Below are positions 16,897-43,262 of a DNA stretch of 64,000 nt, in pieces. The stretch covers positions 22,168-86,167 of the forward strand of contig DATDYS010000013.1 in assembly GCA_035288925.1 (NCBI GenBank), written 5' to 3'. The notes under the pieces were generated by a model that worked only from the letters and a program-made list of their open reading frames with translations, was not told the origin of the DNA and searched no databases. This DNA is from Candidatus Nanoarchaeia archaeon. GTDB taxonomy: Archaea > Nanobdellota > Nanobdellia > Woesearchaeales > GW2011-AR4. Within the stretch, counting starts at the first letter, position 1, and every line of letters starts with the position of its first letter. The translations under genes and the position numbers were made by a program.

Positions 16897-16984
16897 ATTA
16901 GTTTTTTCTTTTATATTTTTGATTTATTCTGAAATGGATGTGAATAGAAAAATAAAAAGGGTCAGCAATAAGCCAACCCTAAAA

Positions 16985-17145
16985 TCCCCGCGGCCGGACT
17001 TGCATGCGGAAGCACGCTCGCTTCTCGCAATTTGAACCAGCAACCTCCCGGGAACTGCTGCTGTTTTACCTTCATCCTTTGCCAATGCACAGTCGGTAAA
17101 TGAGTTTATCTACAGCCGAGCGCTCCACCGTTAAGCTACGCGGGG
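16985..17145 (-). tRNA. tRNA-Tyr (anticodon GTA) with three predicted introns: anticodon loop (~12 nt), variable region (~45 nt) and T-arm (~32 nt)
   Basis: Minus-strand read. Acceptor CCCCGCG pairs with CGCGGGG. D-arm GCTT-AACGGTG-GAGC with G18G19. Anticodon stem CTCGG, loop CTGTAG|A. T-stem GCTGG + TTCAAAT and CCGGC. Exon sequence matches the recalled M. jannaschii tRNA-Tyr layout (loop CTGTAGA, GCTGGTTCAAATCCGGC). The 161-nt length implies ~88 nt of introns. Confidence 0.55.
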
Positions 17146-17217
17146 ACAGGCTTTAGAAATGATTTTGGTTTATAAAGATTGTGTAAAAAAATCCGTTTTT
17201 TCCATTAATCCGCGTTC

Positions 17218-20743: not shown

Positions 20744-20890
20744 GCGGGGGTTATTCTTAAGCGCACGCTTTTGAATCCTTAGAGCAAAGCCTGGTCAAAT
20801 GCGCAGGACTTAAGGAGGCACCCATCTGTAAATGGGATTATGATATCCTGTCTCTTAGTGAGTACGAGGGTTCGAATCCCTTCCCCCGCA
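20744..20890 (+). tRNA. tRNA-Leu (anticodon TAA) with two predicted introns: ~31 nt near position 8/9 (non-canonical) and ~30 nt at 37/38
   Basis: Acceptor GCGGGGG pairs with CCCCCGC, then A. D-arm GCA-AAGCCTGGTCAAA-TGC. Anticodon stem CAGGA/TCCTG with loop CTTAAG|A. Long variable arm TCTCTTAGTGAGTAC. T-arm GAGGG-TTCGAAT-CCCTT. Matches the recalled archaeal tRNA-Leu(UAA) layout. Confidence 0.55.
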
Positions 20891-20941: not shown

Positions 20942-21026
20942 GCCTCTGTAGCATAGTAGCCATTGCGTTGCCTTGGTATTTCAAACAAACAGGCAAAGGT
21001 CGTGGGTGCAATTCCCATCAGAGGCT
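20942..21026 (+). tRNA. candidate tRNA (anticodon GGT, Thr-like) with a 12-nt anticodon-loop intron; atypical T-loop
   Basis: Acceptor GCCTCTG/CAGAGGC. Anticodon stem TTGCC/GGCAA. T-stem GTGGG/CCCAT. The T-loop reads TGCAATT (G at 55), which is unusual. Confidence 0.35.
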
Positions 21027-22077: not shown

Positions 22078-22201
22078 GGGCCTGTGGTCTAGCGGTATGA
22101 CGTCACCTCGACAAACGGCAAAGTCCGTTTACACCTTGTGGGACATAAAGTCCCGAGTATCGAAACGGTGAAGGCCACCAGTTCGAATCTGGTCAGGCCC
22201 A
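22078..22201 (+). tRNA. tRNA (anticodon GAC, Val-like) with a ~51-nt intron; position 33 is C, not U
   Basis: Acceptor GGGCCTG/CAGGCCC, then A. D-arm GTCT-AGCGGTA-TGAC. Anticodon stem TCACC/GGTGA. T-arm ACCAG-TTCGAAT-CTGGT. The intron contains two hairpins (ACGG..CCGT, GGGAC..GTCCC). Confidence 0.5.
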
Positions 22202-22283
22202 TTATTATTTAACCGTGCCATCGCAGATGGCACTTGTTTCCGCACTCAACTGACGGAACAGTTGATTAGGTCAGGCCCATTAT
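22191..22283 (+). repeat. 15-bp direct repeat GGTCAGGCCCATTAT (tRNA 3' end at 22191-22205, duplicated at 22269-22283) bracketing 63 bp
   Basis: Read directly. The intervening 63 bp contains an 8-bp perfect hairpin, GTGCCATC-GCA-GATGGCAC. Confidence 0.6.
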
Positions 22284-22307
22284 CATCCTTAATCATAAAA
22301 AAAGAGT

Positions 22308-23399
22308 GTGAGAATCATCAAGTCAAAACTTTATCCCAGGCTGTTCTTTTTGGGCTTGCTTGCTGCAATCCTGATTCTGGGATTTTATATAACCAGGCCG
22401 TTTCTGCCGGCGCTGCTTACCGGAGCAACAATTACATATCTTTGCTATCCTTTTTACTGCAAGTCGCTTAATTATATCAAAAACAAAAATGCAGCTGCAT
22501 TTGCAGTTTCAATCATCATAGTCCTTCTTTTTACAGTGCCTTTTATTATAATACTCGGCCTGGTGTCACAGGAGGCCTACTACACATACACCACGCTTAG
22601 CCAGCACAACCTTGGAACAAATTTCATGAAAATAGCCTGCAGGGATGAGGGCTGGCTGTCATGCAAGGGCATGCGCACTGTCGTCAGCCTTCTTCCGGAG
22701 CAAAATCTGGATTACTATCTCCAGGTTTCAATAGAAAAGATAACAAAATTCATTGTAGAAAATTTTTCAGCATTCATTGTTTCGCTTCCCTCAATAATGC
22801 TCAATTTCTTCATCATGATTTTCGTTGTTTACTACTTGCTTAAAGACGGCAACAAAGTGGCGGAACGGATAAAAAACCTTCTCCCGCTGAAAGAGCCGCA
22901 CAAGCAGAAAGTTTTGGCAAGATTCCACGATTTGACATTCGGCTCATTTTACGGAAGCATCCTGATGGCGGTCCTGCAGGGCGTTTTGGGCGGAATAGGG
23001 TTTCTCGTGCTCGGAGTGCCATCGGCATTATTATGGGGGTTTGTAATGATTCTTTTCGCGCTGGTTCCGTATTTTGGAACCGCGGTTGTCTGGCTTCCGG
23101 CTGCTCTCGACCTGATATTCCAAGGATACCTGCAAAATGACACATCTTTCACAGTGAGGGGGGTTGTGCTGATAATTTACGGGCTCCTTGTGGTAAGCAC
23201 CATAGACAATTTTTTGAAGCCGAAGCTGATTGGCTCAAAAACAAAAGTTCACCCAATAGTGGTTTTGCTTGGAGTTTTGGGCGGCCTGAAATTGTTCGGG
23301 TTTATAGGCATTATCCTGGGTCCGGTTATGCTGGCACTGCTCATGACGTTTGTTGAAATTTACGAAACGGAAAAAGGCGAAGTGGAAAAATATTTTTGA
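22308..23399 (+). CDS. AI-2E family transporter (PerM/UPF0118 permease)
   Basis: 363 aa, about 8 TM segments. Glycine-rich C-terminal helices typical of the AI-2E family. Confidence 0.55.
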   Translation: MRIIKSKLYPRLFFLGLLAAILILGFYITRPFLPALLTGATITYLCYPFYCKSLNYIKNKNAAAFAVSIIIVLLFTVPFIIILGLVSQEAYYTYTTLSQHNLGTNFMKIACRDEGWLSCKGMRTVVSLLPEQNLDYYLQVSIEKITKFIVENFSAFIVSLPSIMLNFFIMIFVVYYLLKDGNKVAERIKNLLPLKEPHKQKVLARFHDLTFGSFYGSILMAVLQGVLGGIGFLVLGVPSALLWGFVMILFALVPYFGTAVVWLPAALDLIFQGYLQNDTSFTVRGVVLIIYGLLVVSTIDNFLKPKLIGSKTKVHPIVVLLGVLGGLKLFGFIGIILGPVMLALLMTFVEIYETEKGEVEKYF

Positions 23400-27657: not shown

Positions 27658-29358
27658 GTGTTTTGTGGTGCAAAAATGATAAACAAACAGCTATATCGTG
27701 AATTGCAGGAATCTATTAAAAATAGCTGCAATTCACGTGATAGACAATTGCGCGTAAATGAAGTAAATCAGCACAATTGTCTATATAAAAATTTGGAGAT
27801 AGGAAGTGTTGTTCCGATAGTTGAAACACTCCCTTTTGCAATAAATCCGGTAGAGTATTTTGCAAAATTATCTGATTACGGAAGAAAGAAAAATTCATTA
27901 TTATTTGAATCAGCTTCAATCGTGCCAAAATATGGCGAGAGGAGCTTGGGGACTTCTGACCCGTGCCTTAAAATAATCGGCAGAGGGGAATCTTTTGAGA
28001 TAACTGCCCTGAATAAGGCTGGAATTAAATTCCTTGATTTTCTTAAGAATGATTTTGATTTTTGCGATGAAGTTGAATATTCCAAAGATTACATTAAGGG
28101 AAAATTAAAGCCAAAAAGGGAAAATGTAAGTGAAAATGAAAGATTGAAGCTGAAAAACCATACGGATATTTTAAGGGCAATTGCATTCAAGTTTAAGCCT
28201 GCTTCAAAACCATTTATTCCTTACTGCGGGCTTTTTGGCGCGATTTCTTATGACTTCATAGATCAGTTTGAGGATTTGCCCAAAAATGAAATTGATTTAT
28301 TGGAAGATGCTGATTATGTTTTTTATTTTGTGGATAATTTGTTTATGGTTGACCACAAGGAGCAAAAAACTTATTTTGCCGCAAACGCGCTGGTCACTAA
28401 AGATTTTGAAGAAGCTTATTCTGAATGCATTTCAAAGATTCAAAATTACAAAGAGTTAGTTAATGAAAAATTTGACGCTTCCAAACTTAATGATAATCCA
28501 AATAAATCTAAAATAAAATTTGAAAGTGATACAACCAAAGAAGAGTTTATAGAGCAGGTAAATAAGATTAAAAACCATATTTTGGCCGGCGATGTTTACC
28601 AGTGTGTTATATCAAGGACTATTAGCACTGAGTTTAATGGAAACGCTTTTGATATTTATAAAAAATTGAAGGAAGTAAATCCAAGCCCTTACATGTTTTA
28701 TATCAACAATTCAGACGAAATTGTTCTTGGAGCTTCTCCTGAGATGAATTTAAGAGTCGAAGGTGACAAGGAGAAAATAGTTGAAATTCGACCAATTGCA
28801 GGAACAAAGCCAAGAGGAATAGTAAATAGTAAAATTGATTCTGATTTGGATTCAAGATATGAGATTGAATTAAAAACTGATGCAAAGGAGATTGCAGAGC
28901 ATACAATGCTTGTTGATCTAGCAAGGAATGATATCGCCAGAATTTCAAAGCCCGGAACAAGGTATGTTGACGAGCCTTATACGATTGAGAAATATTCTCA
29001 TGTGCAGCATTTGGTTTCAAATGTTTCAGGTGTCTTGAAAGATGACTTGGATGCTTTGCATGCTTACCTTGCGACGATGAACATGGGAACTTTGAGCGGG
29101 GCTCCAAAGGTCGAGGCAATGAAACTGATTAGATTGTATGAAAAGACGAAAAGAGGATTTTATGGCGGGGCAGTTGGATATCTAACGCCAAGTGGAGATA
29201 TGGATAGTGCTATTTTGATACGTTCTATTAGAATTAAAGATAAAAAAGCTTATGTCAGGGTTGGTTCCGGGATTGTACATGATAGCAATCCTGAGTCTGA
29301 GTTTGTTGAAACTGAAAGAAAGGCTAGGGCTTGTTTGAAAGCTATTGAAGGTGTTTAA
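27658..29358 (+). CDS. trpE: anthranilate synthase component I
   Basis: 566 aa. Chorismate-binding core LVDLARNDIARIS...GAPKVEAM. Has insertions. Confidence 0.9.
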   Translation: MFCGAKMINKQLYRELQESIKNSCNSRDRQLRVNEVNQHNCLYKNLEIGSVVPIVETLPFAINPVEYFAKLSDYGRKKNSLLFESASIVPKYGERSLGTSDPCLKIIGRGESFEITALNKAGIKFLDFLKNDFDFCDEVEYSKDYIKGKLKPKRENVSENERLKLKNHTDILRAIAFKFKPASKPFIPYCGLFGAISYDFIDQFEDLPKNEIDLLEDADYVFYFVDNLFMVDHKEQKTYFAANALVTKDFEEAYSECISKIQNYKELVNEKFDASKLNDNPNKSKIKFESDTTKEEFIEQVNKIKNHILAGDVYQCVISRTISTEFNGNAFDIYKKLKEVNPSPYMFYINNSDEIVLGASPEMNLRVEGDKEKIVEIRPIAGTKPRGIVNSKIDSDLDSRYEIELKTDAKEIAEHTMLVDLARNDIARISKPGTRYVDEPYTIEKYSHVQHLVSNVSGVLKDDLDALHAYLATMNMGTLSGAPKVEAMKLIRLYEKTKRGFYGGAVGYLTPSGDMDSAILIRSIRIKDKKAYVRVGSGIVHDSNPESEFVETERKARACLKAIEGV

Positions 29359-29935
29359 TATGAATATCCTGATGATTGATAATTTCGACTCATTCACTTT
29401 CAATTTGGTTGATGAATTTGAAAAAAGAAATTGCAAAGTTCATGTATATAGAAATAATATTAGTCTTGAGAATTTTGAAAGAATAGTTGATGAGATAAAA
29501 CCTTCACTAATTGTTATTTCTCCCGGTCCTTCTACTCCTAAAGATGCTGGAATTTCAATTGATGTTATAAAAAAATATTCCGGTGAAATTCCAATATTTG
29601 GCGTTTGCCTTGGGCATCAGGCAATAATTGAGGCTTTTGGCGGTATTGTAGATAAAGCTCCTGAAGTGTTTCACGGAAAGCCTTCTAAAATCAGCCATGA
29701 TGGGAAAAATATCTACAAAAATCTTTCAAATTCACTGCAGGTTGCAAGGTATCATTCTTTATGCGGCTTAAAAGTTCCTGATTCGCTGGAAGTTACTTCA
29801 AAAACAAACAGTGGAATTGTGATGGGCGTTCGCCATAAGAAATTCTTTGTTGAAGGAGTGCAGTTTCATCCCGAGAGCATTCTAACTCCTGACGGCGGAT
29901 TGATGATTGAAAATTTGTTAGAGGGATTACAATGA
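29345..29935 (+). CDS. trpG: anthranilate synthase component II (class I glutamine amidotransferase)
   Basis: GVCLGHQ catalytic Cys box and HPES His box. Confidence 0.9.
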   Translation: MKVFNMNILMIDNFDSFTFNLVDEFEKRNCKVHVYRNNISLENFERIVDEIKPSLIVISPGPSTPKDAGISIDVIKKYSGEIPIFGVCLGHQAIIEAFGGIVDKAPEVFHGKPSKISHDGKNIYKNLSNSLQVARYHSLCGLKVPDSLEVTSKTNSGIVMGVRHKKFFVEGVQFHPESILTPDGGLMIENLLEGLQ

Positions 29936-30942
29936 TTAAAGAAACAATTTCAAAATTATCAGAAAAAAAGAATTTGACTGAAATTGAAACAGCTAGCACA
30001 ATGGAATTCATAATGGAAGGCAAAGCCACAACTCCGCAAATCAAGGAATTTTTGCTCGGACTGAAAACAAAAGGGGAAACTATTGATGAGATAACCGCGT
30101 GCGCAAGGATAATGAAATCCAAATCAATCAAAATTGATCCCGATGCAATGCATTTGGTTGATACGTGCGGAACTGGCGGAGATAACTCAGGCACTTTCAA
30201 CATTTCAACAGCCGCTGCTTTCGTTGCTGCAGGCGCAGGCGCTTCTGTTGCAAAGCATGGAAATAAATCAATCAGCTCAAAGTGCGGAAGCGCTGATGTA
30301 CTGAAAGCGCTTGGAGTTAATATTGAACTGGAGCCTGAAAAAGTTTCTAAATGCATTGAAAAAGTCGGAATAGGATTTTTGTTTGCTCCAAAATTTCATC
30401 CTGCAATGAAATATGCGATGGACGCTAGGCGGGAACTTGGAGTCAGGACGATTTTTAATATTTTAGGCCCGCTTACTAACCCAGCCGGCGCCAAATCGCA
30501 GTTAATTGGGGTGTTTGATGCAAAATTAATGCCTATCATGGCAAATGTTTTGAAGAATCTTGGAAGCAGGCATGCAATGATTGTAAATGCAAATGGATTG
30601 GATGAAATTTCAATAAGCTCTAAAACCGATGTTTTTGAATTAAAGCATGGAGAAATTCATAATTATTCCATTAATCCTTCTGATTTTGGATTTGAATTAA
30701 GCTCGATTGAAACTTTAAAGGGAGATGCGCCTGAAGAGAATTCCAAGATTATTACTGACGTTTTAAATGGATTGAAAGGGCCTAAAAGAGATGTGGTTGT
30801 GTTAAATGCCGCAGCAGCTTTATTGGTTTGCGGTCTTGCAAAAGATTTTGAAGGTGGGATTGCAATGGCTTCAAGGTCGATTGATAGCGGCAATGCGTTG
30901 GAAAAACTAAAACTTTTGAGGGAACAGAATGGACATTCTTGA
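29932..30942 (+). CDS. trpD: anthranilate phosphoribosyltransferase
   Basis: DTCGTGGD motif, KHGN. Confidence 0.9.
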   Translation: MIKETISKLSEKKNLTEIETASTMEFIMEGKATTPQIKEFLLGLKTKGETIDEITACARIMKSKSIKIDPDAMHLVDTCGTGGDNSGTFNISTAAAFVAAGAGASVAKHGNKSISSKCGSADVLKALGVNIELEPEKVSKCIEKVGIGFLFAPKFHPAMKYAMDARRELGVRTIFNILGPLTNPAGAKSQLIGVFDAKLMPIMANVLKNLGSRHAMIVNANGLDEISISSKTDVFELKHGEIHNYSINPSDFGFELSSIETLKGDAPEENSKIITDVLNGLKGPKRDVVVLNAAAALLVCGLAKDFEGGIAMASRSIDSGNALEKLKLLREQNGHS

Positions 30943-31699
30943 CAAATTCATTGAACAGGCAAAAGAAAATGTGAAACGCGGATATTATGATATATCGCGT
31001 GGGGCTATGCTTGATATAAAGCGAAATTCCCTAAAGCAAAAACTGCTGTCCCAATATTTTACGTTAATTGCTGAAATAAAGCACGCTTCCCCTGCAGGAG
31101 AGTATTCTTTTGATGATGTGGATGCAAATGAGCTGGCATTCAAGTTCAAAAAAGCAGGCGCAGATGCCATTTCAGTTGTGGTAGAGCCAAGAATTTTCAA
31201 AGGGCGCCTGGATAACATCACTATCGCAAAGAAAACTAATTTGCCCGTGCTTTTCAAGGATTTTATCATTGGGGAAACACAAATTAAAAGCGCTGCTGCA
31301 TTGGGAGCAGACTGCATACTTTTGATTGTAAAAGTCGGAGAAAGGCTGAATTTGGATATTGGCAAACTGATAAGAAGAGCGCATTCTTATGGCATGGAGG
31401 TTTTGCTGGAGTGCTATGATAAAGAAGAAGCCCAAAAAGCATTAAGGACAGAAGCAGATATCATTGGCATAAACAACAGGGACCTAAAAACTCTTAAAGT
31501 CGATTTAAATCAGACAAGGGAAATGATGGAATATCTTAGAACTCAAAATCGCCCGGTAATAAGCGAAAGCGGAATAAAGTCAGATAAAGATGCTGAATTT
31601 GTCAAATTGCAAGGTGTCAATGGAATATTGGTCGGCACTGCCATCTGGACTGCAAATGACCAATACGCTAAAATAAAAGAGCTTAGGCTGCGTGAATGA
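30929..31699 (+). CDS. trpC: indole-3-glycerol phosphate synthase (monofunctional; no TrpF domain)
   Basis: 256 aa. IAEIKHASP and INNRDLKT motifs. Confidence 0.85.
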   Translation: MDILDKFIEQAKENVKRGYYDISRGAMLDIKRNSLKQKLLSQYFTLIAEIKHASPAGEYSFDDVDANELAFKFKKAGADAISVVVEPRIFKGRLDNITIAKKTNLPVLFKDFIIGETQIKSAAALGADCILLIVKVGERLNLDIGKLIRRAHSYGMEVLLECYDKEEAQKALRTEADIIGINNRDLKTLKVDLNQTREMMEYLRTQNRPVISESGIKSDKDAEFVKLQGVNGILVGTAIWTANDQYAKIKELRLRE

Positions 31700-31792
31700 T
31701 ATATTCAAATTAACAAAATAAATGAATATTATGCGGAGAGAATATTAAATAAAATAACACAAAGAAATTGAATCGAGACTTTATGTCTCTTC

Positions 31793-31857
31793 AAGCTTGA
31801 CGAGTTTCTTTTGGTCAAGCTTTTCTTTGTTAAAGAAAAGGTTGTTGGTGAACAATA
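31793..31857 (+). promoter_or_regulatory. conserved leader element: AAGCTTGAC-N12-GTCAAGCTT palindrome plus TTTCTTTGTTAAAGAAAAGGTTGTTGG, upstream of trpB
   Basis: Perfect 9-bp inverted repeat. The downstream 35-nt block recurs almost unchanged at 35494-35524 (aroB leader) and inverted at 43075-43114. Confidence 0.6.
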
Positions 31858-33033
31858 ATGAAAACTTTAGGAAAATTTGGAGACTTCGGAGGAATATTTG
31901 TTCCGGAAACTTTGATTCCGGCGCTTGAAGAATTGGAAGAAGCGTTTTTTAGGTTGAAGGATGATAAAAAGTTTAATTCCGAGCTAAAAGATTTGCTTGA
32001 GAAATACGCGGGAAGGCCGACTGCTTTAACTTTCTGCCCAAATTTAAGCAGGAAGCTTGGCTTTAAGCTTTATCTTAAGCGGGAAGATTTGCTGCACACA
32101 GGCGCCCATAAGATAAACAATGCTTTGGGGCAGGCTTTGCTTGCAAAATACATCGGAAAGAAAAGATTGATTGCAGAAACGGGTGCAGGGCAGCATGGAG
32201 TTGCAACTGCAACAGCCGGAGCCCGCCTTAATTTCAAGACAGATGTTTACATGGGCTCAAAAGACATTGAAAGGCAGAAATTAAATGTCCTTAGGATGAA
32301 ACTGCTTGGCGCAAATGTTGTTCCCGTTGAATCAGGCTCTAAAACTCTTAAGGATGCCATTAATGAGGCACTTCGTGACTGGACTGCCAATGTTGAAGAT
32401 ACTCATTATCTTCTTGGAAGTGTACTGGGGCCGCATCCGTTTCCAACCATGATTAAATATTTCCAGAGCGTAGTTGGAATTGAAGCGCGGAAGCAGATAC
32501 TTGAAGCTGAGGGCAGATTGCCTACCCATATAATTGCCTGTGTCGGAGGCGGCTCAAATGCTATCGGAATCTTTAATTCATTCATTGATGATAAAAGCGT
32601 GGGATTGATTGGCGTGGAAGCCGGTGGGGAAGGGATTAAGGGCGGAAATCACGCTGCCCGTTTTGCAGATTCTTCGCTTGGAAGAGTCGGAGTCATACAC
32701 GGCACGAAAACATTTGTCTTGCAGGATAAATACGGCCAGATACACAATACTTCTTCAATAGCCGCAGGCCTTGATTATTGCGCTGTTGGACCTGAGCATA
32801 GCTTATTGAGAGATATTAAAAGAGTTTTATACACTTATGCAACTGATTTGGAGACACTTGATGCTTTTAAGGTATTATCTAAAGAAGAAGGGATTATTCC
32901 TGCGCTTGAAAGCGCGCATGCTGTTGCTCATATTTTGAAAATTGGCAAGAGCTTGAAGAAGGACGATGTTGTAATAGTAAACCTATCGGGAAGGGGAGAT
33001 AAGGATTTGGATCAGATTCAGGAATATCTTTGA
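31858..33033 (+). CDS. trpB: tryptophan synthase beta chain
   Basis: 391 aa. [12 protein letters not shown]-lysine motif. Confidence 0.95.
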
Positions 33034-33134
33034 TTTAAGATTTGATTTTGATTAGGATAATTAGGATTAAAATAAAAATAAAACATTAATGGCAGGCAAA
33101 CACGGGTTTTCTTGGTGAAAACCCTACTCACAAG

Positions 33135-33166
33135 GGAAATTTCCGAACTTCGTAACGGAAATTTCC
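33135..33166 (+). promoter_or_regulatory. intercistronic stem-loop GGAAATTTCC-N12-GGAAATTTCC between trpB and trpA
   Basis: Two copies of the self-complementary 10-mer GGAAATTTCC at 33135-33144 and 33157-33166. Confidence 0.4.
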
Positions 33167-33220
33167 TCTGCATTCGGTTTGCCGCCATACGACTCAGTTT
33201 TCGTCCAACGGAACTTCAAA

Positions 33221-34030
33221 ATGAAAACCTATGAAGAAGTTTTTTCAAATCTGAAAAAGGAAAATAAAGGCGCTTTGGTTGCTTTTATCGTAGCCGGAGA
33301 CCCTGATTACGAGACTAGCCTTCAAATAGCAAAAGCAGTTTGCGATGCAGGTGCTGATATTCTTGAAATCGGGCTGCCGTTTTCCGACCCTATCGCTGAC
33401 GGAAAGACCATACAGGCTGCTGATATACGGGCTTTAGGGAATGGAATGAATACTGACCTATTTTTTAAGTTTGTAAGCGATTTAAGGAAGCATACTGATG
33501 TTCCCATTGGCGTATTGTCATATTATAATCTTGTTTACCAAAGAGGCATAGAGAAATTCTGCATTGATTCAGGGAAAGCCGGAATCAACAGCATCCTGAT
33601 TGCTGACATGACAATAGAGGAAAGCGATTCAATGATTCTTAATGCCAAGAGGCACTCTGTTGAAACTGTTTTCATGATAACTCCGCTTACAAATGATTTG
33701 AGGATAAAAGAAATATCTTTACATTCCAATGGATTTATTTATCTGGTTTCAAGGCTTGGAGTCACAGGCGCCAGAGAGGATTTAAGCAAATCCACTTTGG
33801 AATTAATTAAAAGAGTCAGGAAATTTACTGACAAACCTCTTTGCGTTGGATTTGGAATAAGCACAGCTTCCCATGTTCAAGATGTAATTAACGCAGGCGC
33901 AGACGGCGCAATTGTCGGAAGCGCGATTGTCAAGATTATTGAAGAGAATTTAGAAAACAAAAAAAAGATGGTGGAAGAAGTTAAGGAGTTTGTGAAAGGA
34001 TTAAAAAACACAACATTTAAAAACACATAA
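33221..34030 (+). CDS. trpA: tryptophan synthase alpha chain
   Basis: ORF track frame from 33179. The likely start is MKTYEEV at 33221. Motifs GLPFSDPIADG, GFGIS, GSAIV. Confidence 0.85.
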   Translation: MKTYEEVFSNLKKENKGALVAFIVAGDPDYETSLQIAKAVCDAGADILEIGLPFSDPIADGKTIQAADIRALGNGMNTDLFFKFVSDLRKHTDVPIGVLSYYNLVYQRGIEKFCIDSGKAGINSILIADMTIEESDSMILNAKRHSVETVFMITPLTNDLRIKEISLHSNGFIYLVSRLGVTGAREDLSKSTLELIKRVRKFTDKPLCVGFGISTASHVQDVINAGADGAIVGSAIVKIIEENLENKKKMVEEVKEFVKGLKNTTFKNT

Positions 34031-34213
34031 TCAATCTTATCAATAATATGGAAAGCATCGTTTCAACTTCAAATGTAAGTTCTTTTAGCTATTTCTATTT
34101 CTGGCAGTAAGCCAGACCACCATAATTTTTAAATCATTGGCAATTTCAAGCCTTGATAGGGCTATATTCAGTTTTATCAAGTCGCTTTGAGTTCGGCACG
34201 CCACCATGGCGCT

Positions 34214-34288
34214 GGCTTGACGGGGGTTGTCCCGTGACATGTGAGCGAGTTCGCAACGAGCTCACTCGCAAGTCACTGGGTGTCAAGC
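34214..34288. repeat. second copy of the ~70-bp palindromic element (GCTTGAC...GTGACATGTGAGCGAGT...GAGCTCACTCGCAAGTCAC...GTCAAGC), upstream of the DAHP synthase gene
   Basis: Shares TGACATGTGAGCGAGT, GAGCTCACTCGCAAGTC and GTCAAGC with 740-808. Confidence 0.6.
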
Positions 34289-34369
34289 GAGGCGAAGCCG
34301 ACAGCCGCCATTGTGTGGCGTGCACTAATAAGAATAAACAATTAAAATCAATCAACGGAGGAAACTAAA

Positions 34370-35386
34370 ATGATAATCGTATTGAAAGAAGAAACATCAA
34401 AAGAGGAAATAAAAGATTTAATAGAGAAAATAAAAGAAACCGAGTTAAGGCCGGTTGAGTTCAATGGAGACGAAAGAACTGTAATCCATGTTCTGGGAAA
34501 CGTCACAGAGCAGACTGTAAACAGCTTCAGCTCCATTAAATGCGTTGAAAGGGTAATGAGAATTCTAAAGCCGTTCAAGCTGGCGTCTAAAGAGCATCAT
34601 CAGGGAACAACTGTTGTAAGAGTTGGAGATGTGAGTATAGGAAACGGAGAGATAACCGTAATAGCAGGCCCCTGCTCGATTGAATCAGAAGAGCAGATAA
34701 TGGAATCAGCAAACATAATGAAGAAATTGGGAATAAAAATCATGAGAGCTTCAGCATTCAAGCCAAGAACTTCGCCTTACGATTTCCAGGGAATGGGGAT
34801 AAAAGGATTAAAGCTGTTAAAGAAAGTCAAGGAAAAAACAGGAATATTAACAGAAACAGAAGTAATGGACGTAAGGGACGTTCCCATAGCTGCAGAATAT
34901 GTTGATGTCCTGAGAGTTGGAGCAAGAAACATGCAGAACTATGACTTGTTAAAGGAATTGGGAAAGATAAACAAGCCGGTCATATTAAAAAGGGGAATGT
35001 CAGCCACAATCAATGAATTCCTGATGGCAGCTGAATACGTACTATACCACGGCAACAAAGATGTGATATTATGCGAAAGGGGAATAAGGACTTTCGAGAC
35101 CGCTTACAGAAACACTTTGGATGTAGGCGCAGTTGCAGTATTAAAAAACATGACGCATTTGCCTGTGATAGTTGACCCAAGCCACGCAGCCGGAAAAAGA
35201 GAATTAATTGCACCGTTAAGCAAGGCAGCGATTGCAGCAGGGGCAGACGGGTTATTAATTGAATGCCATCCAAATCCAGAGAAAGCACTAAGCGATGGAG
35301 CGCAATCCATATATCCTGAGCAGTTAGCGCAATTGTTAAAAGATCTAAAGCCTTTATGCGAGGCTTTGGGAAGAAAATTGGGTTAA
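34370..35386 (+). CDS. 3-deoxy-7-phosphoheptulonate (DAHP) synthase, class I-beta, with N-terminal ferredoxin-like regulatory domain
   Basis: 338 aa. ~70-aa N-terminal extension, then the KDO8PS/DAHPS I-beta core (CSIESEEQ, KPRTSPY, DPSHA). Confidence 0.8.
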   Translation: MIIVLKEETSKEEIKDLIEKIKETELRPVEFNGDERTVIHVLGNVTEQTVNSFSSIKCVERVMRILKPFKLASKEHHQGTTVVRVGDVSIGNGEITVIAGPCSIESEEQIMESANIMKKLGIKIMRASAFKPRTSPYDFQGMGIKGLKLLKKVKEKTGILTETEVMDVRDVPIAAEYVDVLRVGARNMQNYDLLKELGKINKPVILKRGMSATINEFLMAAEYVLYHGNKDVILCERGIRTFETAYRNTLDVGAVAVLKNMTHLPVIVDPSHAAGKRELIAPLSKAAIAAGADGLLIECHPNPEKALSDGAQSIYPEQLAQLLKDLKPLCEALGRKLG

Positions 35387-35439
35387 AAACAATAAAAACT
35401 AAAAATAAAACAAGAAAAATAAGGGCTTTATGCCCTTCC

Positions 35440-35524
35440 AAGCTTGACGAGTTCCTCTTCAAGAGGGCTTTGAACTTTGTTCAAAACTTTTTTGTCAAGC
35501 TTTTTCTTGTGGAGAAAAAGGTTG
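35440..35524 (+). promoter_or_regulatory. conserved leader element, aroB copy (AAGCTTGACGAGTT ... GTCAAGCTTTTTCTTGTGGAGAAAAAGGTTGATGG)
   Basis: Same 5' AAGCTTGACGAGTT and 3' GTCAAGCTTTT-CTTTGT-AGAAAAGGTTG-TGG blocks as the trpB leader. Confidence 0.6.
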
Positions 35525-36652
35525 ATGGACACCATAAATGCGAAGATAAAATCAAAGGAATACGATTACCAGATTTTCGTAGGCAGCTCTATCCTAAACG
35601 AACTGGCAGATTTTATTAAAAAAAATCACAGCGGAAAGAAAGTTGCAGTCATAATGGGAGAGCACACCAGCAGGCTGCACAAGCCAAAGCTCGGCAAAAT
35701 ATTAAGCGACCTAAACCCATTGTTCATAACAGTCCCTTCAGGAGAATCTTCCAAATCCAGGGAAATGAAGGAAGAAATAGAGGACAATTTATTAGACCAT
35801 AAGTTCGGAAGGGATTCTTTAATCATAGCAATTGGCGGCGGAGTAATCGGAGATTTAGCCGGATTCGTGGCATCGACTTTCAACAGGGGGATTCCGGTAA
35901 TTCATGTGCCGACTACTTTATTGGCAATGGCAGACTCATCCATCGGCGGGAAAACGGCGATAAACACAAAGCACGGAAAGAATTTAATCGGAACTTTCCA
36001 CCAGCCCGATGCGGTATTTGTTGACATGGATTTTCTGGAAACGCTGCCGGATGACGAATTCAAAAGCGGATTGGGAGAAATCATAAAGCAGGGAATAATA
36101 CAAGACAAAGAACTGTTCAATTTTCTGGAAAAACACTGCAAGGAAATTCTTGAAAGAAAAAAAGACGTCCTGCAGCATATAATAAAGCGCTCAATTGAAT
36201 TAAAAAAGCAGGTTTTTGAATTGGACTCTCATGAAATGGGTTTGAGGCAGATTCTGAATTTCGGGCACACTTTCGGGCATGCTTTGGAAGCATATTACAA
36301 TTACAAGATAAAGCACGGATTTGCAGTAGCCATAGGAATGGTTGTAGAAGCAAGAATTTCAGCAATGACAAATAGTCTAAAGGAAAATGAGGAAGAAAGA
36401 ATCAGAAACATGATTAAAATATTCGGGTTTCCCATGTCTGATTCCGCCGGCACTTCAAAAATAATGGAACTTATGGTATCGGACAAGAAATCAAAAGGAA
36501 ACCGGCCAAGGTTTGTCTTGATTGACAGAATAGGAAAAGCAAAAGAAAAAGACGGCAGTTTCTCGTTTGAAGTTGACAGCAAGGTCGTAGAAGAAGCGAT
36601 AGAAAAAAGCAAAGATGAGTATGATTCAAAAACCAATCAGTTAATAAAATGA
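35525..36652 (+). CDS. aroB: 3-dehydroquinate synthase
   Basis: The ORF track starts at 35477. The likely start is MDTINAK at 35525, which falls inside the conserved leader block. Motifs GGGVIGDLAGF and the metal-binding His region. Confidence 0.85.
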   Translation: MDTINAKIKSKEYDYQIFVGSSILNELADFIKKNHSGKKVAVIMGEHTSRLHKPKLGKILSDLNPLFITVPSGESSKSREMKEEIEDNLLDHKFGRDSLIIAIGGGVIGDLAGFVASTFNRGIPVIHVPTTLLAMADSSIGGKTAINTKHGKNLIGTFHQPDAVFVDMDFLETLPDDEFKSGLGEIIKQGIIQDKELFNFLEKHCKEILERKKDVLQHIIKRSIELKKQVFELDSHEMGLRQILNFGHTFGHALEAYYNYKIKHGFAVAIGMVVEARISAMTNSLKENEEERIRNMIKIFGFPMSDSAGTSKIMELMVSDKKSKGNRPRFVLIDRIGKAKEKDGSFSFEVDSKVVEEAIEKSKDEYDSKTNQLIK

Positions 36653-39600
36653 TTGAGATAAATTCTGTTCAGAATCTTGATGCAGAGATTTCCATTCCTG
36701 GCAGCAAGTACATAGCAAACAGGTTGCTGATTATATGCGCTTTAGCCAACGGAACTTCAGTTCTGAAAAATGTGCCTGACAATGAGGATATTAATAATTC
36801 CATAAAAGCCCTGCAGCAATTCGGAATCGAGATTGAAAAAAATAAGGATAATCTGACAATAACCGGAACAGGAAAATTAAAAGCTCCAAATAACGAAATA
36901 AATGTAGGCGACTCAGGAACTTTATTAAGATTTATAACTGCATTTTCCGCTCTTGCAAAAGGGAACACCAAAATTACCGGAAGCAAAAGGATTCAGGAAA
37001 GGCCTATTTCTGATTTATTAAAAAGCTTGAGTGATTTGGGCATCAAATCCAATTCAAAAAATGGAAATGCGCCTTTGACAATTACCGGCGGGAATTTAGA
37101 TGGCGGAAAAACGAAAATCAAAGGAAGCATAAGCAGCCAGTTCATCAGCGCTTTGCTGTTAATCTCGCCTTTTGCAAAAAATGATGTAGAAATAACCATA
37201 GATGGGGAGCTGGTTTCTTCTGGATACGTTGATTTAACAATTAATTTGATGAAAGAATTCGGAGTAAATGTGGAAAGAAGCGGAAGCAGATTCACAGTCA
37301 AGGCAAATCAAAAATATAAATCAAGAAATTTTACAATTCCATCTGACTGGGCCTCTGCAAATTATTTTCTGGCAGCTGCAGCAATTGTTCCGGGAACTGT
37401 GACAATTAATAATCTGGATTTTAAGTCAAAAGTCCCTGAATCAGGATTTTACAGGGTATTGGAGAAGATGGGCTGCAAAGTTTTGCTGGATAATAATTCA
37501 ATAAAAATAACTGGAACTGATAAGTTAAAGCCAATTGATGCAGATATGGGTTCAATGCCAGATTCAGCGCAAACCTTAGCTGTTGCTGCACTATTTGCAG
37601 ACGGGACGACAAAAATAAGAAATATTGGAAATTTAAAATTCAAGGAATCAGACAGGATTAATGATACTGCAACTGAATTAAGGAAATTGGGCGCAGATGT
37701 CGAAGTAAAAAACGACGAATTAATAATTAATAATAATTTAAAAAAACTAAATTTCAAATCGGCAATCATTGATTCCCATAATGACCACCGGATGGCAATG
37801 AGCTTTGCAGTTGTCGGATTAAGAATTCCTGGAATTAAAATAGATAATCCGGAATGCGCAAACAAATCATTTCCGCAATTTTTCGCCAAATTAAATAAAA
37901 TAACAGCAAAGAAACAGAAAAATATTGTTCTGATTGGGTACAGGGGAGCCGGAAAGACGTCAACGGCAATGGAATTATCAAAATTGACAGGAATGAATAT
38001 CATTAGCACAGATGAAGAAATCTCAAAAAAAGTCGAAATGCCGATAGCGGATTTTATCGATAAAAACGGATGGGATGAGTTCAGGAAAGCTGAAAATGAA
38101 GTAATTGAAAGCCTCAAAGATGCTGATGGAGTGATAATTGACTGCGGCGGCGGAGTGGTTGAGAATGAGAATAATATCAAACTAATAAAACAAAATGGAG
38201 TGGTTTTCTGGCTTCGTGCGCAGGTCAGCGTGCTTGCTGACAGGATTAAAGACACTAAAAACAGGCCCTCAATAACCGGAAAAAAATCCTTTATTGACGA
38301 GATTGACGAAGTCTTGAGAAAAAGAATCCCCTTTTACAGGAAAGCCTGTGATTTTGAAATTGATACCAGCAACGAAAATCCGCTTCAAATAGCCCAATTG
38401 ATAATAAAATTGTATTCAATTCAACCTGTGAAAACAAGAATATGCGCCGTGATAACCGCAGACAATGTGAAAGACGCGCTTAATGATATGAAAAAAGCGG
38501 AATCCTCGGATTTGGTAGAATTAAGGCTGGATTTCATCAAGAATATTGATGAAAACAAAGTTAAGGAATTAATGAATAATAAAAAACAAAGAATAATTGC
38601 AACACTAAGGCCAGTTAAATTTGGTGGATTATTCAAAGGAGAAAAGAAAGGGAGATTTGCATTATTAAACAAAGCAATTGAGCTCGGAGCGGATTTTGTT
38701 GATGTTGAATTCGGCTCTGAAATTGCCGCGGATATTATTAAGAATAAAAAATCTTCAAAAATAATAATTTCGCACCATGACTTTAATGAAACTCCGTCAC
38801 TGGAAAAATTGGAATCAATCTACAGCCAAATAGATAAGTTGAATCCTGATTTTGTGAAGATTGTAACGGCTGCAAATTCAATCAATGATAATTTTATAAT
38901 TTTTGATTTACTTAAAGGAAAAAATAATTTAATATCATTTTGCATGGGGCAAAAAGGGGAGATTTCAAGGATTTTAGCGCCAAAGTTCGGCTCTGCGGTT
39001 ACATACTGCAGTATAAATCAAAACAAAGAATCCGCTCCCGGGCAGATTACTCAGGAAGAAATGAATAATCCGTATCATGTTGGTTTAATCAATCCGCAAA
39101 CTAATGTAATTGGAATAATTGGAGAATTCGCCGAGAATTCAATGTCAAAGTACATGCACAATCCTAATTTTGTGAAGAACAACGCCAATTTTGTCTATGT
39201 CCCTTTCAAAGTGTCTCCAAATGAATTAAGCGAGTTCATGGATAATTTCAAGAAATTTAATTTTAAGGGGGCTGCTGTTACGATTCCGCATAAAGAAACC
39301 ATAATCGGCCTGATACACAATGTAAATGAAACTGCGGACGAAATCGGGGCTGTAAATACGTTGGTTAGGGATGACGAAAAAATCATAGGCTATAATACTG
39401 ATTATTACGGCGCCGTTGAATCATTAAAGGAGAAATTAAATTCAAAAGGAAAGAAAGTCTTGGTTATTGGAGCAGGAGGGGCTGCAAGAGCCGTTATTTA
39501 CGGATTAAAGAAAGAAGGGGCAGAAATTATAATAATTAACCGAACAGGAGACAAGGCAAAAGAGCTTGCAGAAAATTTTAAGGTTAGCTTTGACAAATTT

Positions 39601-39921
39601 GAGAATATAAAATCATTGGCAAGGCAGGCTGATGTAATAATCAACACAACCAGTTTGGGGATGACGCCATTTGAAAACGGATGCGCCCTGGAAGAAGATG
39701 AATTGCCGGAAGGAAAGATTGTCATGGATGTTGTCTACAAGCCGGTTATCACAAAACTTATTAAGCTTGCGCAAAAAAAGAAATGCAGGACAATCACTGG
39801 CGACAGAATGCTTATATACCAGGCAGTAAGGCAATTTGAATTATGGACGAAAATAAATCCTGGATTTGAAAATATGGAAAAAGAACTGGCAAAGGAAATT
39901 AATAAAAATAAAAAACAATAA
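36649..39921 (+). CDS. tetrafunctional shikimate-pathway fusion: EPSP synthase, shikimate kinase (AroK-type), 3-dehydroquinate dehydratase (type I), shikimate dehydrogenase. AROM-like domain order
   Basis: 1090 aa. The EPSPS N-terminal ~420 aa carry LGNSGT-like GDSGTLLRF. P-loop kinase IGYRGAGKTS. Type I DHQase segment ICAVITAD...LRLDF. SDH segment with GAAVTIPHK and GAGGAARAVIYGL. Overlaps the aroB stop by 4 nt. Confidence 0.8.
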   Translation: MIEINSVQNLDAEISIPGSKYIANRLLIICALANGTSVLKNVPDNEDINNSIKALQQFGIEIEKNKDNLTITGTGKLKAPNNEINVGDSGTLLRFITAFSALAKGNTKITGSKRIQERPISDLLKSLSDLGIKSNSKNGNAPLTITGGNLDGGKTKIKGSISSQFISALLLISPFAKNDVEITIDGELVSSGYVDLTINLMKEFGVNVERSGSRFTVKANQKYKSRNFTIPSDWASANYFLAAAAIVPGTVTINNLDFKSKVPESGFYRVLEKMGCKVLLDNNSIKITGTDKLKPIDADMGSMPDSAQTLAVAALFADGTTKIRNIGNLKFKESDRINDTATELRKLGADVEVKNDELIINNNLKKLNFKSAIIDSHNDHRMAMSFAVVGLRIPGIKIDNPECANKSFPQFFAKLNKITAKKQKNIVLIGYRGAGKTSTAMELSKLTGMNIISTDEEISKKVEMPIADFIDKNGWDEFRKAENEVIESLKDADGVIIDCGGGVVENENNIKLIKQNGVVFWLRAQVSVLADRIKDTKNRPSITGKKSFIDEIDEVLRKRIPFYRKACDFEIDTSNENPLQIAQLIIKLYSIQPVKTRICAVITADNVKDALNDMKKAESSDLVELRLDFIKNIDENKVKELMNNKKQRIIATLRPVKFGGLFKGEKKGRFALLNKAIELGADFVDVEFGSEIAADIIKNKKSSKIIISHHDFNETPSLEKLESIYSQIDKLNPDFVKIVTAANSINDNFIIFDLLKGKNNLISFCMGQKGEISRILAPKFGSAVTYCSINQNKESAPGQITQEEMNNPYHVGLINPQTNVIGIIGEFAENSMSKYMHNPNFVKNNANFVYVPFKVSPNELSEFMDNFKKFNFKGAAVTIPHKETIIGLIHNVNETADEIGAVNTLVRDDEKIIGYNTDYYGAVESLKEKLNSKGKKVLVIGAGGAARAVIYGLKKEGAEIIIINRTGDKAKELAENFKVSFDKFENIKSLARQADVIINTTSLGMTPFENGCALEEDELPEGKIVMDVVYKPVITKLIKLAQKKKCRTITGDRMLIYQAVRQFELWTKINPGFENMEKELAKEINKNKKQ

Positions 39922-40009
39922 TAAAAATACATTACGAAACTAACTACAATACGACTAAAAATTCAATACAATACTAATAATCATCAACGAAAAATCAAAA
40001 ACTTAAAAG

Positions 40010-41113
40010 GTGAATAAAATGCCGGGAAACTCGTTTGGAGAATCATTCAAAATAACAAACTGGGGCGAGAGCCACGGAAAGGCGATTGGAGTGGTCATAG
40101 ATGGGTGTCCGGCACTATTAGAACTGAATGAAGGTTACATACAAAAATTTCTTGACAGAAGAGCGCCAGGCCAAAGCGATATCACAACTCAAAGGCAGGA
40201 GCCTGACAAGGTGGAAATACTTTCAGGACTGTTCAACGGCAGGACAACAGGAACTCCAATCAGCATGATAATCTCCAATAAAGATTACAAAAAAGAAGAC
40301 TACAAGGAGATTGCAGCAGCCTTCAGGCCCAGCCATGCGGACTTTACGTACCAAAAAAAGTTTGGAATCAGGGACATGTCCGGCGGAGGAAGAAGCTCGG
40401 CAAGATTGACCGCAGGAAATGTCGCAGCAGGGGCAATTGCATACAAGATACTGAATGAAAGGTTTGGCGTTGAAGTGGTTGCTTATGTAAAGCAGATTAA
40501 AGATGTACAAGCTGAAATTGATTCTGAAAAAGTTTCAAAAAAAGACGTTGACTCAAACATTGTCAGGTGTCCGGACAAAACTGCGGCAAAGCAGATGATT
40601 GAATTAATTGAAAATGCAAAAGACAAGGGAGATTCCGTAGGCGGAATAATAGAATGCATCATAAGAAACGCCCCAATCGGACTGGGAGAGCCGATTTTTG
40701 ACAAGCTGGAAGCGGATTTGGCAAAGGCAATGCTCTGCATCAATGCAACAAAGGGCTTTGAAATAGGCTCCGGGTTTGAAGGGACTAAATTATTCGGCAG
40801 CCAGCATAATGATGCCTTCGTGATGAAAAACGGAAAAGTTGAAACAAAAACAAACAACTCAGGCGGGGTCCAGGGAGGAATTTCAAACGGAATGCCAATC
40901 ATCTTTAGAGTCGCATTCAAGCCCACATCTACAATTCAAAAAGAGCAGGATACTATTGACATCAAAGGAAAGTCAGTAAAATTAGCCGCTAAGGGGCGCC
41001 ATGACCCATGCGTTTTGCCCAGGGCAGTCCCGATTGTCGAGGCAATGGCTTCTCTTGTCCTGTGCGACCATTACTTAAGGCAAAGGGCGCAGAACGGTGA
41101 TAAATTTGATTGA
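40010..41113 (+). CDS. aroC: chorismate synthase
   Basis: 367 aa. GESHG, GRSSAR motifs. Confidence 0.9.
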
Positions 41114-42116
41114 TGAGCTAAGAAAGGCAATTGATGGGCTGGATGAAAAAATATTAAATCTGCTTTCCAAAAGGAAAAATTTAGCTAAGGAAGTTGCGAA
41201 ACTAAAGGAAAATCTGGACTTGCCTGTTTTTGACAAAAAAAGGGAAGAGGAAATATTAAAAAATATTTCCGGCAGGGCAAAGCAGTTGGGACTTGATGTG
41301 AATTCTGTTTCAGATGTATTTAACGCAATCTTCCGGGGCTCGAGAAGCGAGCAGCAAAAGCAGATGGGCAAAGTTGAATGCAGCGTCAAAAAAATAGGAC
41401 TAATCGGCTTTGGAAGATTCGGAAAATTGATAGTAAGGCATCTTTCAGGCGACTTTGATTTTTATGTTTATGACAGATTGGCAAACAAGAATGAAATAAA
41501 AAATAATAATGCAGTCCCATCATCACTAAAGGAATTATGCCGGCTGGATATTATAATCTTAGCTGTCCCAATTTCAGAGATTAAATCTGTTTTGAATGAC
41601 ATCAAAAATTTATTAAAAAAAGATGCATTGGTTGTGGATGTCTGCTCGGTGAAAGAATACCCTATTAAATTAATGAAAAATATTTTGCCAAAAAGCGTGC
41701 AGATTCTTGGGACTCATTCAATGTTCGGGCCCGATACCGCCTACGACTCATTGGAGGAAAAAAAAATAGTATTGTGCAAAGTCAGGATTCAAAATAATCT
41801 TTATCTGCAAATCAAAAGATTTCTTGAAAGTAAGCAGCTTGCAGTTATCGAGGCAACTGCGCAGCAGCATGATGCGGAAATGGCAAAATCGCTTGTGCTG
41901 ACTCATTTTATCGGAAGAGCACTTATGGATATAGGAGTTTCTGATATGGAAATTGATACAAAAAGTTACAGGGATTTGCTCAGAATTTTAGATACTGTAA
42001 AAAATGACACATGGCAGCTTTTTGAGGATATGAATAAATTCAACAAATATTCAAAAGGAGTGAGAAAGGATTTAATCAAGTCGTTAAGCAACGTGGAGAA
42101 AAAATTATCAAAATGA
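41097..42116 (+). CDS. tyrA: bifunctional chorismate mutase (AroQ) / prephenate dehydrogenase
   Basis: N-terminal AroQ helix [20 protein letters not shown], then the NAD-binding [10 protein letters not shown]. Confidence 0.75.
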
Positions 42117-42931
42117 AAATAGCATACCAGGGAATCAAGGGGGCTTACAGCGAGGCAGCTGTCTACAAGCATTTTGGAGACAAAGCAGAATCTGCCGGGT
42201 TTGATACTTTTGAGGAAGTGTTTGAAGCAGTCAAATCAGGCAAAGTGGATTATGGAGTTGTGCCTGTTGACAACACAATAGCTGGAACTGTTGCTGCAAA
42301 CTGCGATTTGCTTTTAAAGCACGATGTTTATGTGATTGCGGAGATTTATTTGGATATCCATCATAATCTGCTTTCGCATAAAGGAACTTCATTGAAAGAT
42401 TTGAAAATTATTTATTCGCATCCCCACGCGCTGGAGCAGTGCAGGGAATTCATTAAAAAGCATAAATTAAAGTCAGTGCCGGAATATGACACTGCGGGAG
42501 CTGCAAAAATAATAAAGGAAAGAAACAAGAAAGACGAGGCTGCCATAGCTTCCGAATTCTGTGCCAAAATTTATGGTTTGGGTATAATTGAAAAAAATAT
42601 TTCAACTGCAAAGAACAACATTACAAAATTTTTTGTTTTTGTCAACAGCGATAAAATTCCCAAAAATATCAAGCAGGAAAAAACAAGCATTGTTTTCAGG
42701 ACAAAGCATTACCCGGGAGCATTGATCAACTGCCTTCAGAGGCTGGCAAAGCATGATATTAACCTGACCAAGCTTGAATCAAGGCCGGTTCCTGAAAATC
42801 CATGGGAGTATTCTTTCTATGCGGACTTTGAAGGCGGAGTCGAGGACGAAAAGGTAAAGCTTGCATTAAGCGAGATGGAAGCTTCTTGTGAATTCTTAAA
42901 GGTGCTTGGAAGCTATCCGAAAGGAAAATGA
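42113..42931 (+). CDS. pheA: prephenate dehydratase with C-terminal ACT domain
   Basis: 272 aa. PDT domain then an ACT domain with ESRP. Confidence 0.85.
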   Translation: MKIAYQGIKGAYSEAAVYKHFGDKAESAGFDTFEEVFEAVKSGKVDYGVVPVDNTIAGTVAANCDLLLKHDVYVIAEIYLDIHHNLLSHKGTSLKDLKIIYSHPHALEQCREFIKKHKLKSVPEYDTAGAAKIIKERNKKDEAAIASEFCAKIYGLGIIEKNISTAKNNITKFFVFVNSDKIPKNIKQEKTSIVFRTKHYPGALINCLQRLAKHDINLTKLESRPVPENPWEYSFYADFEGGVEDEKVKLALSEMEASCEFLKVLGSYPKGK

Positions 42932-43049
42932 CAGGGAACATTTATAAACAAAAAATCAATTCGAGTTCTTATCACGCCGGGGTCGCATAACCTGGTCAAT
43001 ATTCGAAGATGTTGAATCTTCAATATTCAGGAAATTGCGCAAGCCTGGA

Positions 43050-43125
43050 AAGCTTGTTTCCGAAAGGATATCTGGGTTCAAAACAACCTTTTCTTTTGCA
43101 AAGAAAAGCTTGACCAAAAGAAAGG
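43050..43125 (-). promoter_or_regulatory. inverted orphan copy of the trpB/aroB leader element
   Basis: The reverse complement reads CTTTCTTTTGGTCAAGCTTTTCTTTGCAAAAGAAAAGGTTGTTTTGAAC, near-identical to 31806-31850. Confidence 0.5.
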
Positions 43126-43262
43126 CACTCACGAGGTGGTGGGGCAAACCCCACTGGCTTAATGTTGCTTTCACACGGAAAGGTTGCTGAAATTCCCAGC
43201 TCCGGCGTTTTTAATTTTAATTCTTTGAGAGGTTATAGGCCAATTTTCAAAAGATATTACTG

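Follow-up and report, generated by a model that had tools for sequence, protein, structure and literature searches.

The tRNA-Tyr locus

The minus strand of the window (the whole 64-kb stretch of DNA that was analysed) carries, from 17145 to 16985, a tRNA-Tyr(GUA) gene of 161 nt (Table 1). The gene starts with CCCCGCG and finishes with CGCGGGG-A, which reads as a 7-bp acceptor stem with the pair C1-G72 and A73 as the discriminator base. Both C1-G72 and A73 are identity elements of archaeal tRNA-Tyr. Once spliced, the product is a class I cloverleaf of 72 nt with the anticodon GUA, which aragorn calls tRNA-Tyr(gta); CCA is not encoded. The original prediction, made from the letters of the window, had placed a tRNA-Tyr(GTA) gene at 16985-17145, and the call on the spliced product bears out both its ends and its anticodon.

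The gene is preceded by a TATA-like box, TTTATAAA, which is kept at an equal distance from the gene in the related loci L121-L128, L130 and L132, and the run TTTT that follows the discriminator base is likely to serve as the transcription stop of the gene. The identical gene sequence was seen on four independent metagenome contigs, and the SRP54 protein of the window was present on 24 metagenome contigs (those examined).

Standard tools pass over the locus. Default ARAGORN returned no tRNA anywhere in the 64-kb window, and Rfam gave no match at 16985-17145, either at the gathering threshold or at E up to 10, its only tRNA matches in the whole window being those at 20942-21026 and 22078-22201. 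The intron-aware search (aragorn -i) on the unedited sequence also misses the tRNA-Tyr locus, because of the second intron; when the T-loop intron was removed first, the same search returned a single intron of 57 nt.

Table 1. Coordinates of the tRNA-Tyr gene, its parts and the other tRNA genes of the window
Feature	Position	Strand	Description	Basis or conservation
Complete tRNA-Tyr(GUA) gene	16985..17145	-	Full cloverleaf once spliced	aragorn call on spliced product
TATA-like box	17169..17176	-	TTTATAAA, -31 to -24 relative to position 1	Sequence reading
T-run	16981..16984	-	TTTT, immediately 3' of the discriminator base	Sequence reading
5' exon	17110..17145	-	tRNA positions 1-37, CCCCGCGTAGCTTAACGGTGGAGCGCTCGGCTGTAG	Same in L126, L127, L128, L130 and L132
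Intron 1	17053..17109	-	57 nt, canonical position 37/38	BHB geometry, aragorn -i, covariance model R1
k-turn-like module in intron 1	17065..17100	-		Invariance and covariation in relatives
Middle exon	17031..17052	-	Positions 38-59: C38, CCGGG, AGGUU, GCUGG, UUCAAA	Conserved in close relatives
Intron 2	16999..17030	-	32 nt, non-canonical position 59/60, T loop	BHB script and relatives
3' exon	16985..16998	-	Positions 60-73: U60, CCGGC, CGCGGGG, A73	Same in five close relatives
tRNA-Leu(UAA)	20744-20890	+	31-nt intron after position 8 (20752-20782); 30-nt intron at 37/38 (20815-20844)	31-nt intron: H 4/4, h 2, h' 4
tRNA-Thr(GGU)	20942-21026		12-nt intron at 37/38	
tRNA-Val(GAC)	22078-22201	+	52-nt intron at 37/38 (22114-22165)	Perfect UCGA/UCGA central helix
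tRNA-Ser(GGA)	42976-43207	+	37-nt D-loop intron (42997-43033) and 111-nt intron at 59/60 (43083-43193)	D-loop intron: H 4/4, h 3, h' 6; 59/60 intron: H 4/4, h 5

Exon and intron architecture

The archaeal splicing endonuclease requires a 4-bp helix between two 3-nt bulges, and this geometry, together with flanking helices, was the one scored by the BHB script used here. Both introns present two 3-nt bulges around a central helix and a flanking helix. In intron 1 the bulges are AGA and TTC, the central helix CUGU/GCAG is fully paired (4/4) and the outer helix CUCGG/CCGGG (5/5) is the anticodon stem itself. This motif is a relaxed hBH rather than a strict hBHBh', because the inner helix beside the bulge amounts to a single base pair. 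In intron 2 the T stem provides the outer helix (5 bp), the central helix UUCA/UGCA has three of four pairs, with one U-C mismatch, and the inner helix UGCG/CGCA has 4 bp.

Removal of the 57-nt segment after CUGUAG (positions 32-37) leaves C38 and CCGGG contiguous with AGGUU and the T arm, and the product obtained when both the 57-nt and the 32-nt segments are taken out is a full tRNA-Tyr cloverleaf in aragorn, with one U28-G42 pair in the anticodon stem. C38 is rarer than A38 in tRNA-Tyr. In an unbiased enumeration, in which every BHB-compatible segment was taken in all combinations of up to three and the products were scored by aragorn, this solution ranked first among 3669 BHB-filtered combinations. 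A fold constrained to the cloverleaf and both BHBs has an energy of -48.3 kcal/mol. The unconstrained minimum-energy fold (-62.2 kcal/mol, z-score -2.15) is not a cloverleaf, agrees neither with this structure nor with the three-intron pairing discussed below, and is uninformative on the splice sites.

The gene structure and BHB motifs computed here suggest how the precursor would be expressed, cleaved and ligated. The gene's own TATA box would drive a 161-nt precursor carrying two BHB introns to be spliced by protein. In intron 1, C32-U35 would form base pairs with a GCAG close to where the intron ends on its 3' side and make up, with the anticodon stem, a helix-bulge-helix-bulge substrate, and in intron 2 the T-loop positions 54-57 would pair with UGCA near the 3' end, with the T stem as outer and UGCG/CGCA as inner helix. 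The splicing endonuclease EndA would then cut the four 3-nt bulges, and ligation, expected of RtcB, would give a 72-nt tRNA with C38 and U28-G42, to which CCA would be added later. The T-loop intron at 59/60 needs an enzyme that tolerates introns outside 37/38, in agreement with the relaxed endonuclease that had been proposed for this organism at the outset; a Pfam scan of the 40 ORFs of the window found neither an EndA nor an L7Ae domain among them.

The gene family in distant relatives

The unusual D-arm pattern of the gene was used to scan species-representative genomes, which gave 120 loci, mostly from DPANN archaea (Micr-, Woese-, Pace-, Aenigm- and Nanoarchaeota). An intron at 37/38, of 15 to 162 nt, is carried by 84 of the 84 parsable archaeal genes, and the window parses in the same frame as these relatives (CTCGG and CTGTAG, the 57-nt intron, then C, CCGGG, AGGTT and GCTGG). 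The arrangement of CUCGG followed after the intron by C38 and CCGGG (C CCGGG AGGTT in the DNA) recurs in L017, L035, L043, L088 and L115, and C38 and U28-G42 are therefore traits of the family. Introns of the Woese/Pace-type subfamily share a conserved 3' end, CAGCNGNN, which pairs with the invariant C32-U35. Insertions in the T loop were found in ten further relatives, and all ten fit a BHB at 59/60.

Two further observations were made in the same scan. In L060 and L076, both Woesearchaeota, the tRNA-Tyr gene has an insertion right after the 5' strand of the T stem (GCTGG/AAG...), a third intron position in the family. The D-arm pattern also matches bacterial tRNA genes of Patescibacteria/Saccharibacteria (L002, L003, L006, L011, L016, L037, L061, L072 and others), in which insertions of well over 200 nt after CCTGTAGA resemble self-splicing group I introns.

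An alignment of the anticodon stem and intron of nine relatives (A2), from which the window was left out, is clean and covaries strongly, with 89.5% of cells paired, compared with 69% in shuffles. The covariance model built from these nine relatives, again without the window (R1), gave one match in the 64 kb, at 17120-17047 on the minus strand, which runs the full length from CUCGG to CCGGG (30.9 bits, E 3e-6). In this match the CCGA of the window is aligned to a conserved xGA, and its GGAUGAA to a conserved AUGAA. The R1 family has 27 members among 93 sources, in which the covariation persists.

A k-turn-like module in intron 1

The conserved part of intron 1 consists of an outer helix (UUUACC/GGUAAA), a GA on the 5' strand (17093-17094, within ACCGA at 17093-17097), an inner hairpin and, on the 3' strand, a 3-nt bulge GAU followed by a second GA, which lies within GGAUGAA (17071-17077). 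The 5'-strand GA and the 3'-strand (N)AUGA are invariant in A2, and the outer helix has compensatory changes at all six of its pairs, with 98% of cells paired. In nine of nine relatives, a Watson-Crick pair (CG, UA or GC) joins the base that follows the 5' GA to the base four before the 3' GA, so that one strand has exactly three unpaired bases (N-A-U) and the other has none. A second covarying helix follows the two GAs. This pattern holds in the 27 model matches.

A k-turn consists of a Watson-Crick helix, a 3-nt bulge in one of the strands, tandem sheared G-A/A-G pairs to which each strand contributes a GA, and a second helix, and archaeal L7Ae binds k-turns. In a test confined to sequence and covariation, the module of intron 1 follows this set of rules; it also resembles a box C'/D' pair. 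The module is most likely a predicted L7Ae site, which would hold the intron in shape.

It is possible, though less likely, that GA...AUGA forms some other internal loop, makes a contact for a different protein such as the endonuclease, or represents one half of a degenerate guide RNA of the box C/D type. There is an irregularity just after the tandem G-A pairs, where the 3' strand has one nucleotide more than the 5' strand, AUGA and xGA also match the box C'/D' consensus, and the intron ends in CUGA in many relatives. The geometry nevertheless matches the k-turn rules in the covarying pair beside the GA, in the three nucleotides and GA on the opposite strand and in the second covarying helix; moreover, intron 1 has no second C/D box pair, the would-be guide region upstream of xGA itself forms a strand of the intron's outer helix, and the locus has no match to a C/D family of Rfam at E up to 10.

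A complete box C/D guide sRNA, which has two box pairs (C/D and C'/D') and guides of 10-12 nt complementary to a target, was considered as a separate candidate for intron 1 and rejected, since there is only one GA...AUGA pair and the guide region lies inside a helix.

Conservation and replacement in close relatives

A metagenome scan with the exact D arm of the window returned nine contigs. Five close relatives (L126, L127, L128, L130 and L132) are syntenic with the window, with flanking DNA 67-84% identical. When the gene is read with two introns, its 36-nt 5' exon and 14-nt 3' exon are identical in all five, and their middle exon differs from that of the window at one base of the variable loop (T or C), whereas the introns are variable or absent at the predicted junctions. 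Intron 1 is 57 to 89 nt long among the window and these relatives. The length of intron 2 in the five forms the series 0, 25, 33, 109 and 166 nt: L128 has none, and its sequence, GGTTCAAATCCGGCC, equals the predicted splice product; the 33-nt intron of L132 is homologous to that of the window, with the inner helix UGCUG/CAGCA in place of UGCG/CGCA; and the same site holds unrelated introns in L127 (25 nt), L130 (109 nt) and L126 (166 nt). None of the long T-loop introns of the relatives matched an Rfam family. This comparison confirms the boundaries at 59/60, and with them the 32-nt insertion of the original prediction, now placed at 16999-17030, where a BHB fits and which is absent or replaced at the same junction in relatives.

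The same comparison rules out, with very little room for doubt, a decaying tRNA pseudogene that has gathered insertions while a canonical tRNA-Tyr elsewhere does the work. Standard tools do give no score at the locus, and the search for another gene covers the 64-kb window, but the exons are conserved save for that one variable-loop base although the flanks are only 67-84% identical and the insertions have diverged freely across species. The BHB pairing of intron 2 is kept by compensation (UGCG/CGCA in the window, UGCUG/CAGCA in L132), the promoter box is maintained, synteny with the neighbouring 477-aa gene extends to distant Woese/Pace relatives, and tRNA-Tyr is interrupted in all 84 parsed relatives.

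Even less probable is the division first proposed for this gene, into three introns (12 nt at 37/38, 45 nt in the variable region at 42/43 and 32 nt at 59/60) with a 5-nt exon ACCGA, A38 and the stem CUCGG/CCGAG, which the same comparison also rules out. It was said that the arms of the tRNA are intact only after three removals; aragorn does call the three-cut product of 72 nt tRNA-Tyr(gta), its stem being perfect and its base 38 the commoner A, and a 12-nt intron does occur in the neighbouring tRNA-Thr, but removal of the single 57-nt segment also gives a full tRNA-Tyr. Three separate introns were rejected on four grounds. First, the central BHB helix has only 2/4 pairs for the 12-nt intron taken as a separate unit and 0/4 for the 45-nt intron (1/4 after removal of the 12-nt segment), so that of the three proposed junction pairs only that at 59/60 has a BHB. 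Second, the putative exon ACCGA reads ATCGA, GCTGA or ACTGA in relatives whose exons are otherwise identical, and these versions (ACCGA, ATCGA, GCUGA and ACUGA) change in step with their partners (GGUAAA, GAUAAA, AGCAAA and AGUAAA), the GCUGA version being unable to pair with CUCGG. Third, the three-intron combination never passes the BHB filter in the enumeration. Fourth, the fold constrained to its pairing reaches -37.4 kcal/mol, which is 11 kcal/mol weaker than that of the cloverleaf with both BHBs. The model built from relatives likewise aligns CCGA to the conserved xGA motif of the intron. The 12-nt intron, ACCGA and the 45-nt intron thus correspond to one intron of 57 nt, in which ACCGA is the 3' end of one strand of the intron helix together with the GA of the conserved internal loop. 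More than one intron and the non-canonical position 59/60 remain from the original proposal, the count being two rather than three and two of the three positions wrong.

The locus is thus read, at a probability of about 90%, as a real tRNA-Tyr(GUA) gene that is functional, has two BHB introns at 37/38 and 59/60 and belongs to an archaeon of DPANN type with a small genome. The lineage of this archaeon is probably of the Woesearchaeota/Pacearchaeota type, as judged by the tRNA-Tyr family and by the synteny shared with named Woese-, Pace- and Nanoarchaeota genomes, and the Woese/Pace-type DPANN relatives of the family agree with the small-genome archaeal origin that had been suggested from the letters of the window.

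Other interrupted tRNA genes and 59/60 introns

Each of the window's five tRNA genes is interrupted, including the four in 17-22.2 kb (Tyr, Leu, Thr and Val) for which introns had been correctly foreseen. Default ARAGORN finds none of the five and Rfam finds two; the tRNA-Ser gene is missed by ARAGORN, by aragorn -i and by Rfam.

The 31-nt intron of tRNA-Leu, between positions 8 and 9, lies at an unusual site. The predicted mature anticodon loop of tRNA-Val, UCGACAC, departs from the almost universal U at position 33, where it has a C. A reading with two introns, giving tRNA-Val the loop UUUACAC (anticodon UAC), was also weighed but lacks a good BHB. Next to this gene, at 22266-22322 on the minus strand, lies a possible box C/D sRNA (UGAUGA...GGAUGA...CUGA) with a weak match to Rfam sR4 (19 bits). 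Its guide in front of box D, UAAUGGGC, shows complementarity to the 3' end of that tRNA-Val, and there are two copies of the 15-mer GGTCAGGCCCATTAT, one at 22192-22206 and one at 22268-22282. The plus strand from 27658 to 42931 carries a tryptophan operon and, after it, genes of the shikimate pathway, one of which encodes a protein of 1090 aa that unites EPSP synthase, shikimate kinase, dehydroquinase and shikimate dehydrogenase; this set of tryptophan and shikimate genes exceeds the usual biosynthetic capacity of a DPANN-type genome.

The 111-nt intron at 59/60 of tRNA-Ser is homologous to the 59/60 introns of tRNA-Tyr in L130, L126 and L090. The alignment of the Ser and Tyr introns has 37 invariant columns, mostly in the first 41 nt, and blastn of the Ser intron against the Tyr introns gives 92% identity over 38 nt and 89% over 53 nt. 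Two different tRNA species thus carry homologous introns at one and the same position. The window's own 32-nt intron of tRNA-Tyr is shared with the more distant L132, L128 has no intron at this site, and the flanks of the sister species L130 and L126, which carry the Ser-like introns, are about 84% identical to those of the window. This distribution suggests that 59/60 introns may move between tRNA-Ser and tRNA-Tyr, by replacement or mobility at one site. In the locus, its sister species and tRNA-Ser, introns are seen, as a clean example, to be gained, lost and replaced at a single site.

Two linked readings go further, namely that the 37/38 intron of tRNA-Tyr in DPANN archaea of Woese/Pace/Nanoarchaeota type is a conserved, structured RNA whose true k-turn brings in L7Ae, and that the 59/60 introns of the present lineage are actively mobile, hopping from tRNA-Ser to tRNA-Tyr or back and displacing one another among species with flanks about 84% identical; we hold them tentatively, at slightly less than even odds. 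If they are true, the L7Ae-bound intron of tRNA-Tyr would have a role of its own, in chaperoning BHB formation or as a stable circular RNA, and the actively mobile 59/60 introns would offer a natural system for the spread of archaeal tRNA introns.

Comparison with known systems

The tRNA-Tyr locus belongs to a known class, that of multi-intron archaeal tRNA genes overlooked by standard finders. tRNA genes with several introns, up to three, and with non-canonical BHB introns are well documented (PMC4033280, PMC4090602, PMC3239211), and have been described in Thermoproteales, Korarchaeum, Nanoarchaeum and ARMAN-1/2 (PMC4033280, PMC4090602). The gene described here resembles those of Thermoproteales, Korarchaeum, Nanoarchaeum and ARMAN in its BHB or relaxed hBH motifs, in having more than one intron, in its T-loop intron and in being missed by finders. 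It differs from them in its host, a DPANN archaeon of Woese/Pace type with about 40% G+C rather than a hyperthermophilic crenarchaeon or an acidophilic ARMAN, and it has two introns as against the reported maximum of three.

Several DPANN lineages have an alpha4-type EndA with an extra L3 loop, which has been associated with more tRNA gene disruption, and some DPANN tRNA sets cannot be completed by standard predictors, which points to undetected disrupted genes (Kaneta et al. 2018, PMC5829648). The tRNA-Tyr locus is such a gene, and its link to an EndA with the L3 loop would follow from that literature. Default ARAGORN misses all the tRNA genes of the window and Rfam three of the five, so that genomes of this kind look as if they lacked essential tRNAs, the same point that was made for DPANN (PMC5829648). 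The case also bears on method, as a working cloverleaf after chosen removals does not prove the positions of introns, for which BHB geometry and relatives are needed.

The analysis also brings to light a putative, conserved k-turn-like module in an intron, and in the literature that was searched neither k-turns in tRNA-Tyr introns nor intron mobility in DPANN were found described. The closest precedent for the module is the intron of euryarchaeal tRNA-Trp, which holds a box C/D guide RNA (Clouet d'Orval et al. 2001, Singh et al. 2004, as cited in PMC7994747). As that account describes it, the tRNA-Trp intron shares with intron 1 the canonical position 37/38, a length of about 50-60 nt, conserved GA motifs of the k-turn type and predicted binding of L7Ae. 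On the same account, the intron described here is unlike it in having a single k-turn-like motif, a guide region inside a helix and tRNA-Tyr as its host, and its family is confined to Woese/Pace/Nanoarchaeota-type genomes, whereas the tRNA-Trp intron is euryarchaeal.

For the 59/60 introns, the nearest parallel is the transposition of introns between tRNA species described in Thermoproteales (a 2010 study, as cited in PMC4033280). As outlined in that citation, the two cases share the occurrence of similar introns in different tRNA species, here Ser and Tyr at 59/60. The present case differs from the one so outlined in that it concerns DPANN archaea and in that one intron appears to have replaced another at a single site, between flanks that are about 84% identical.
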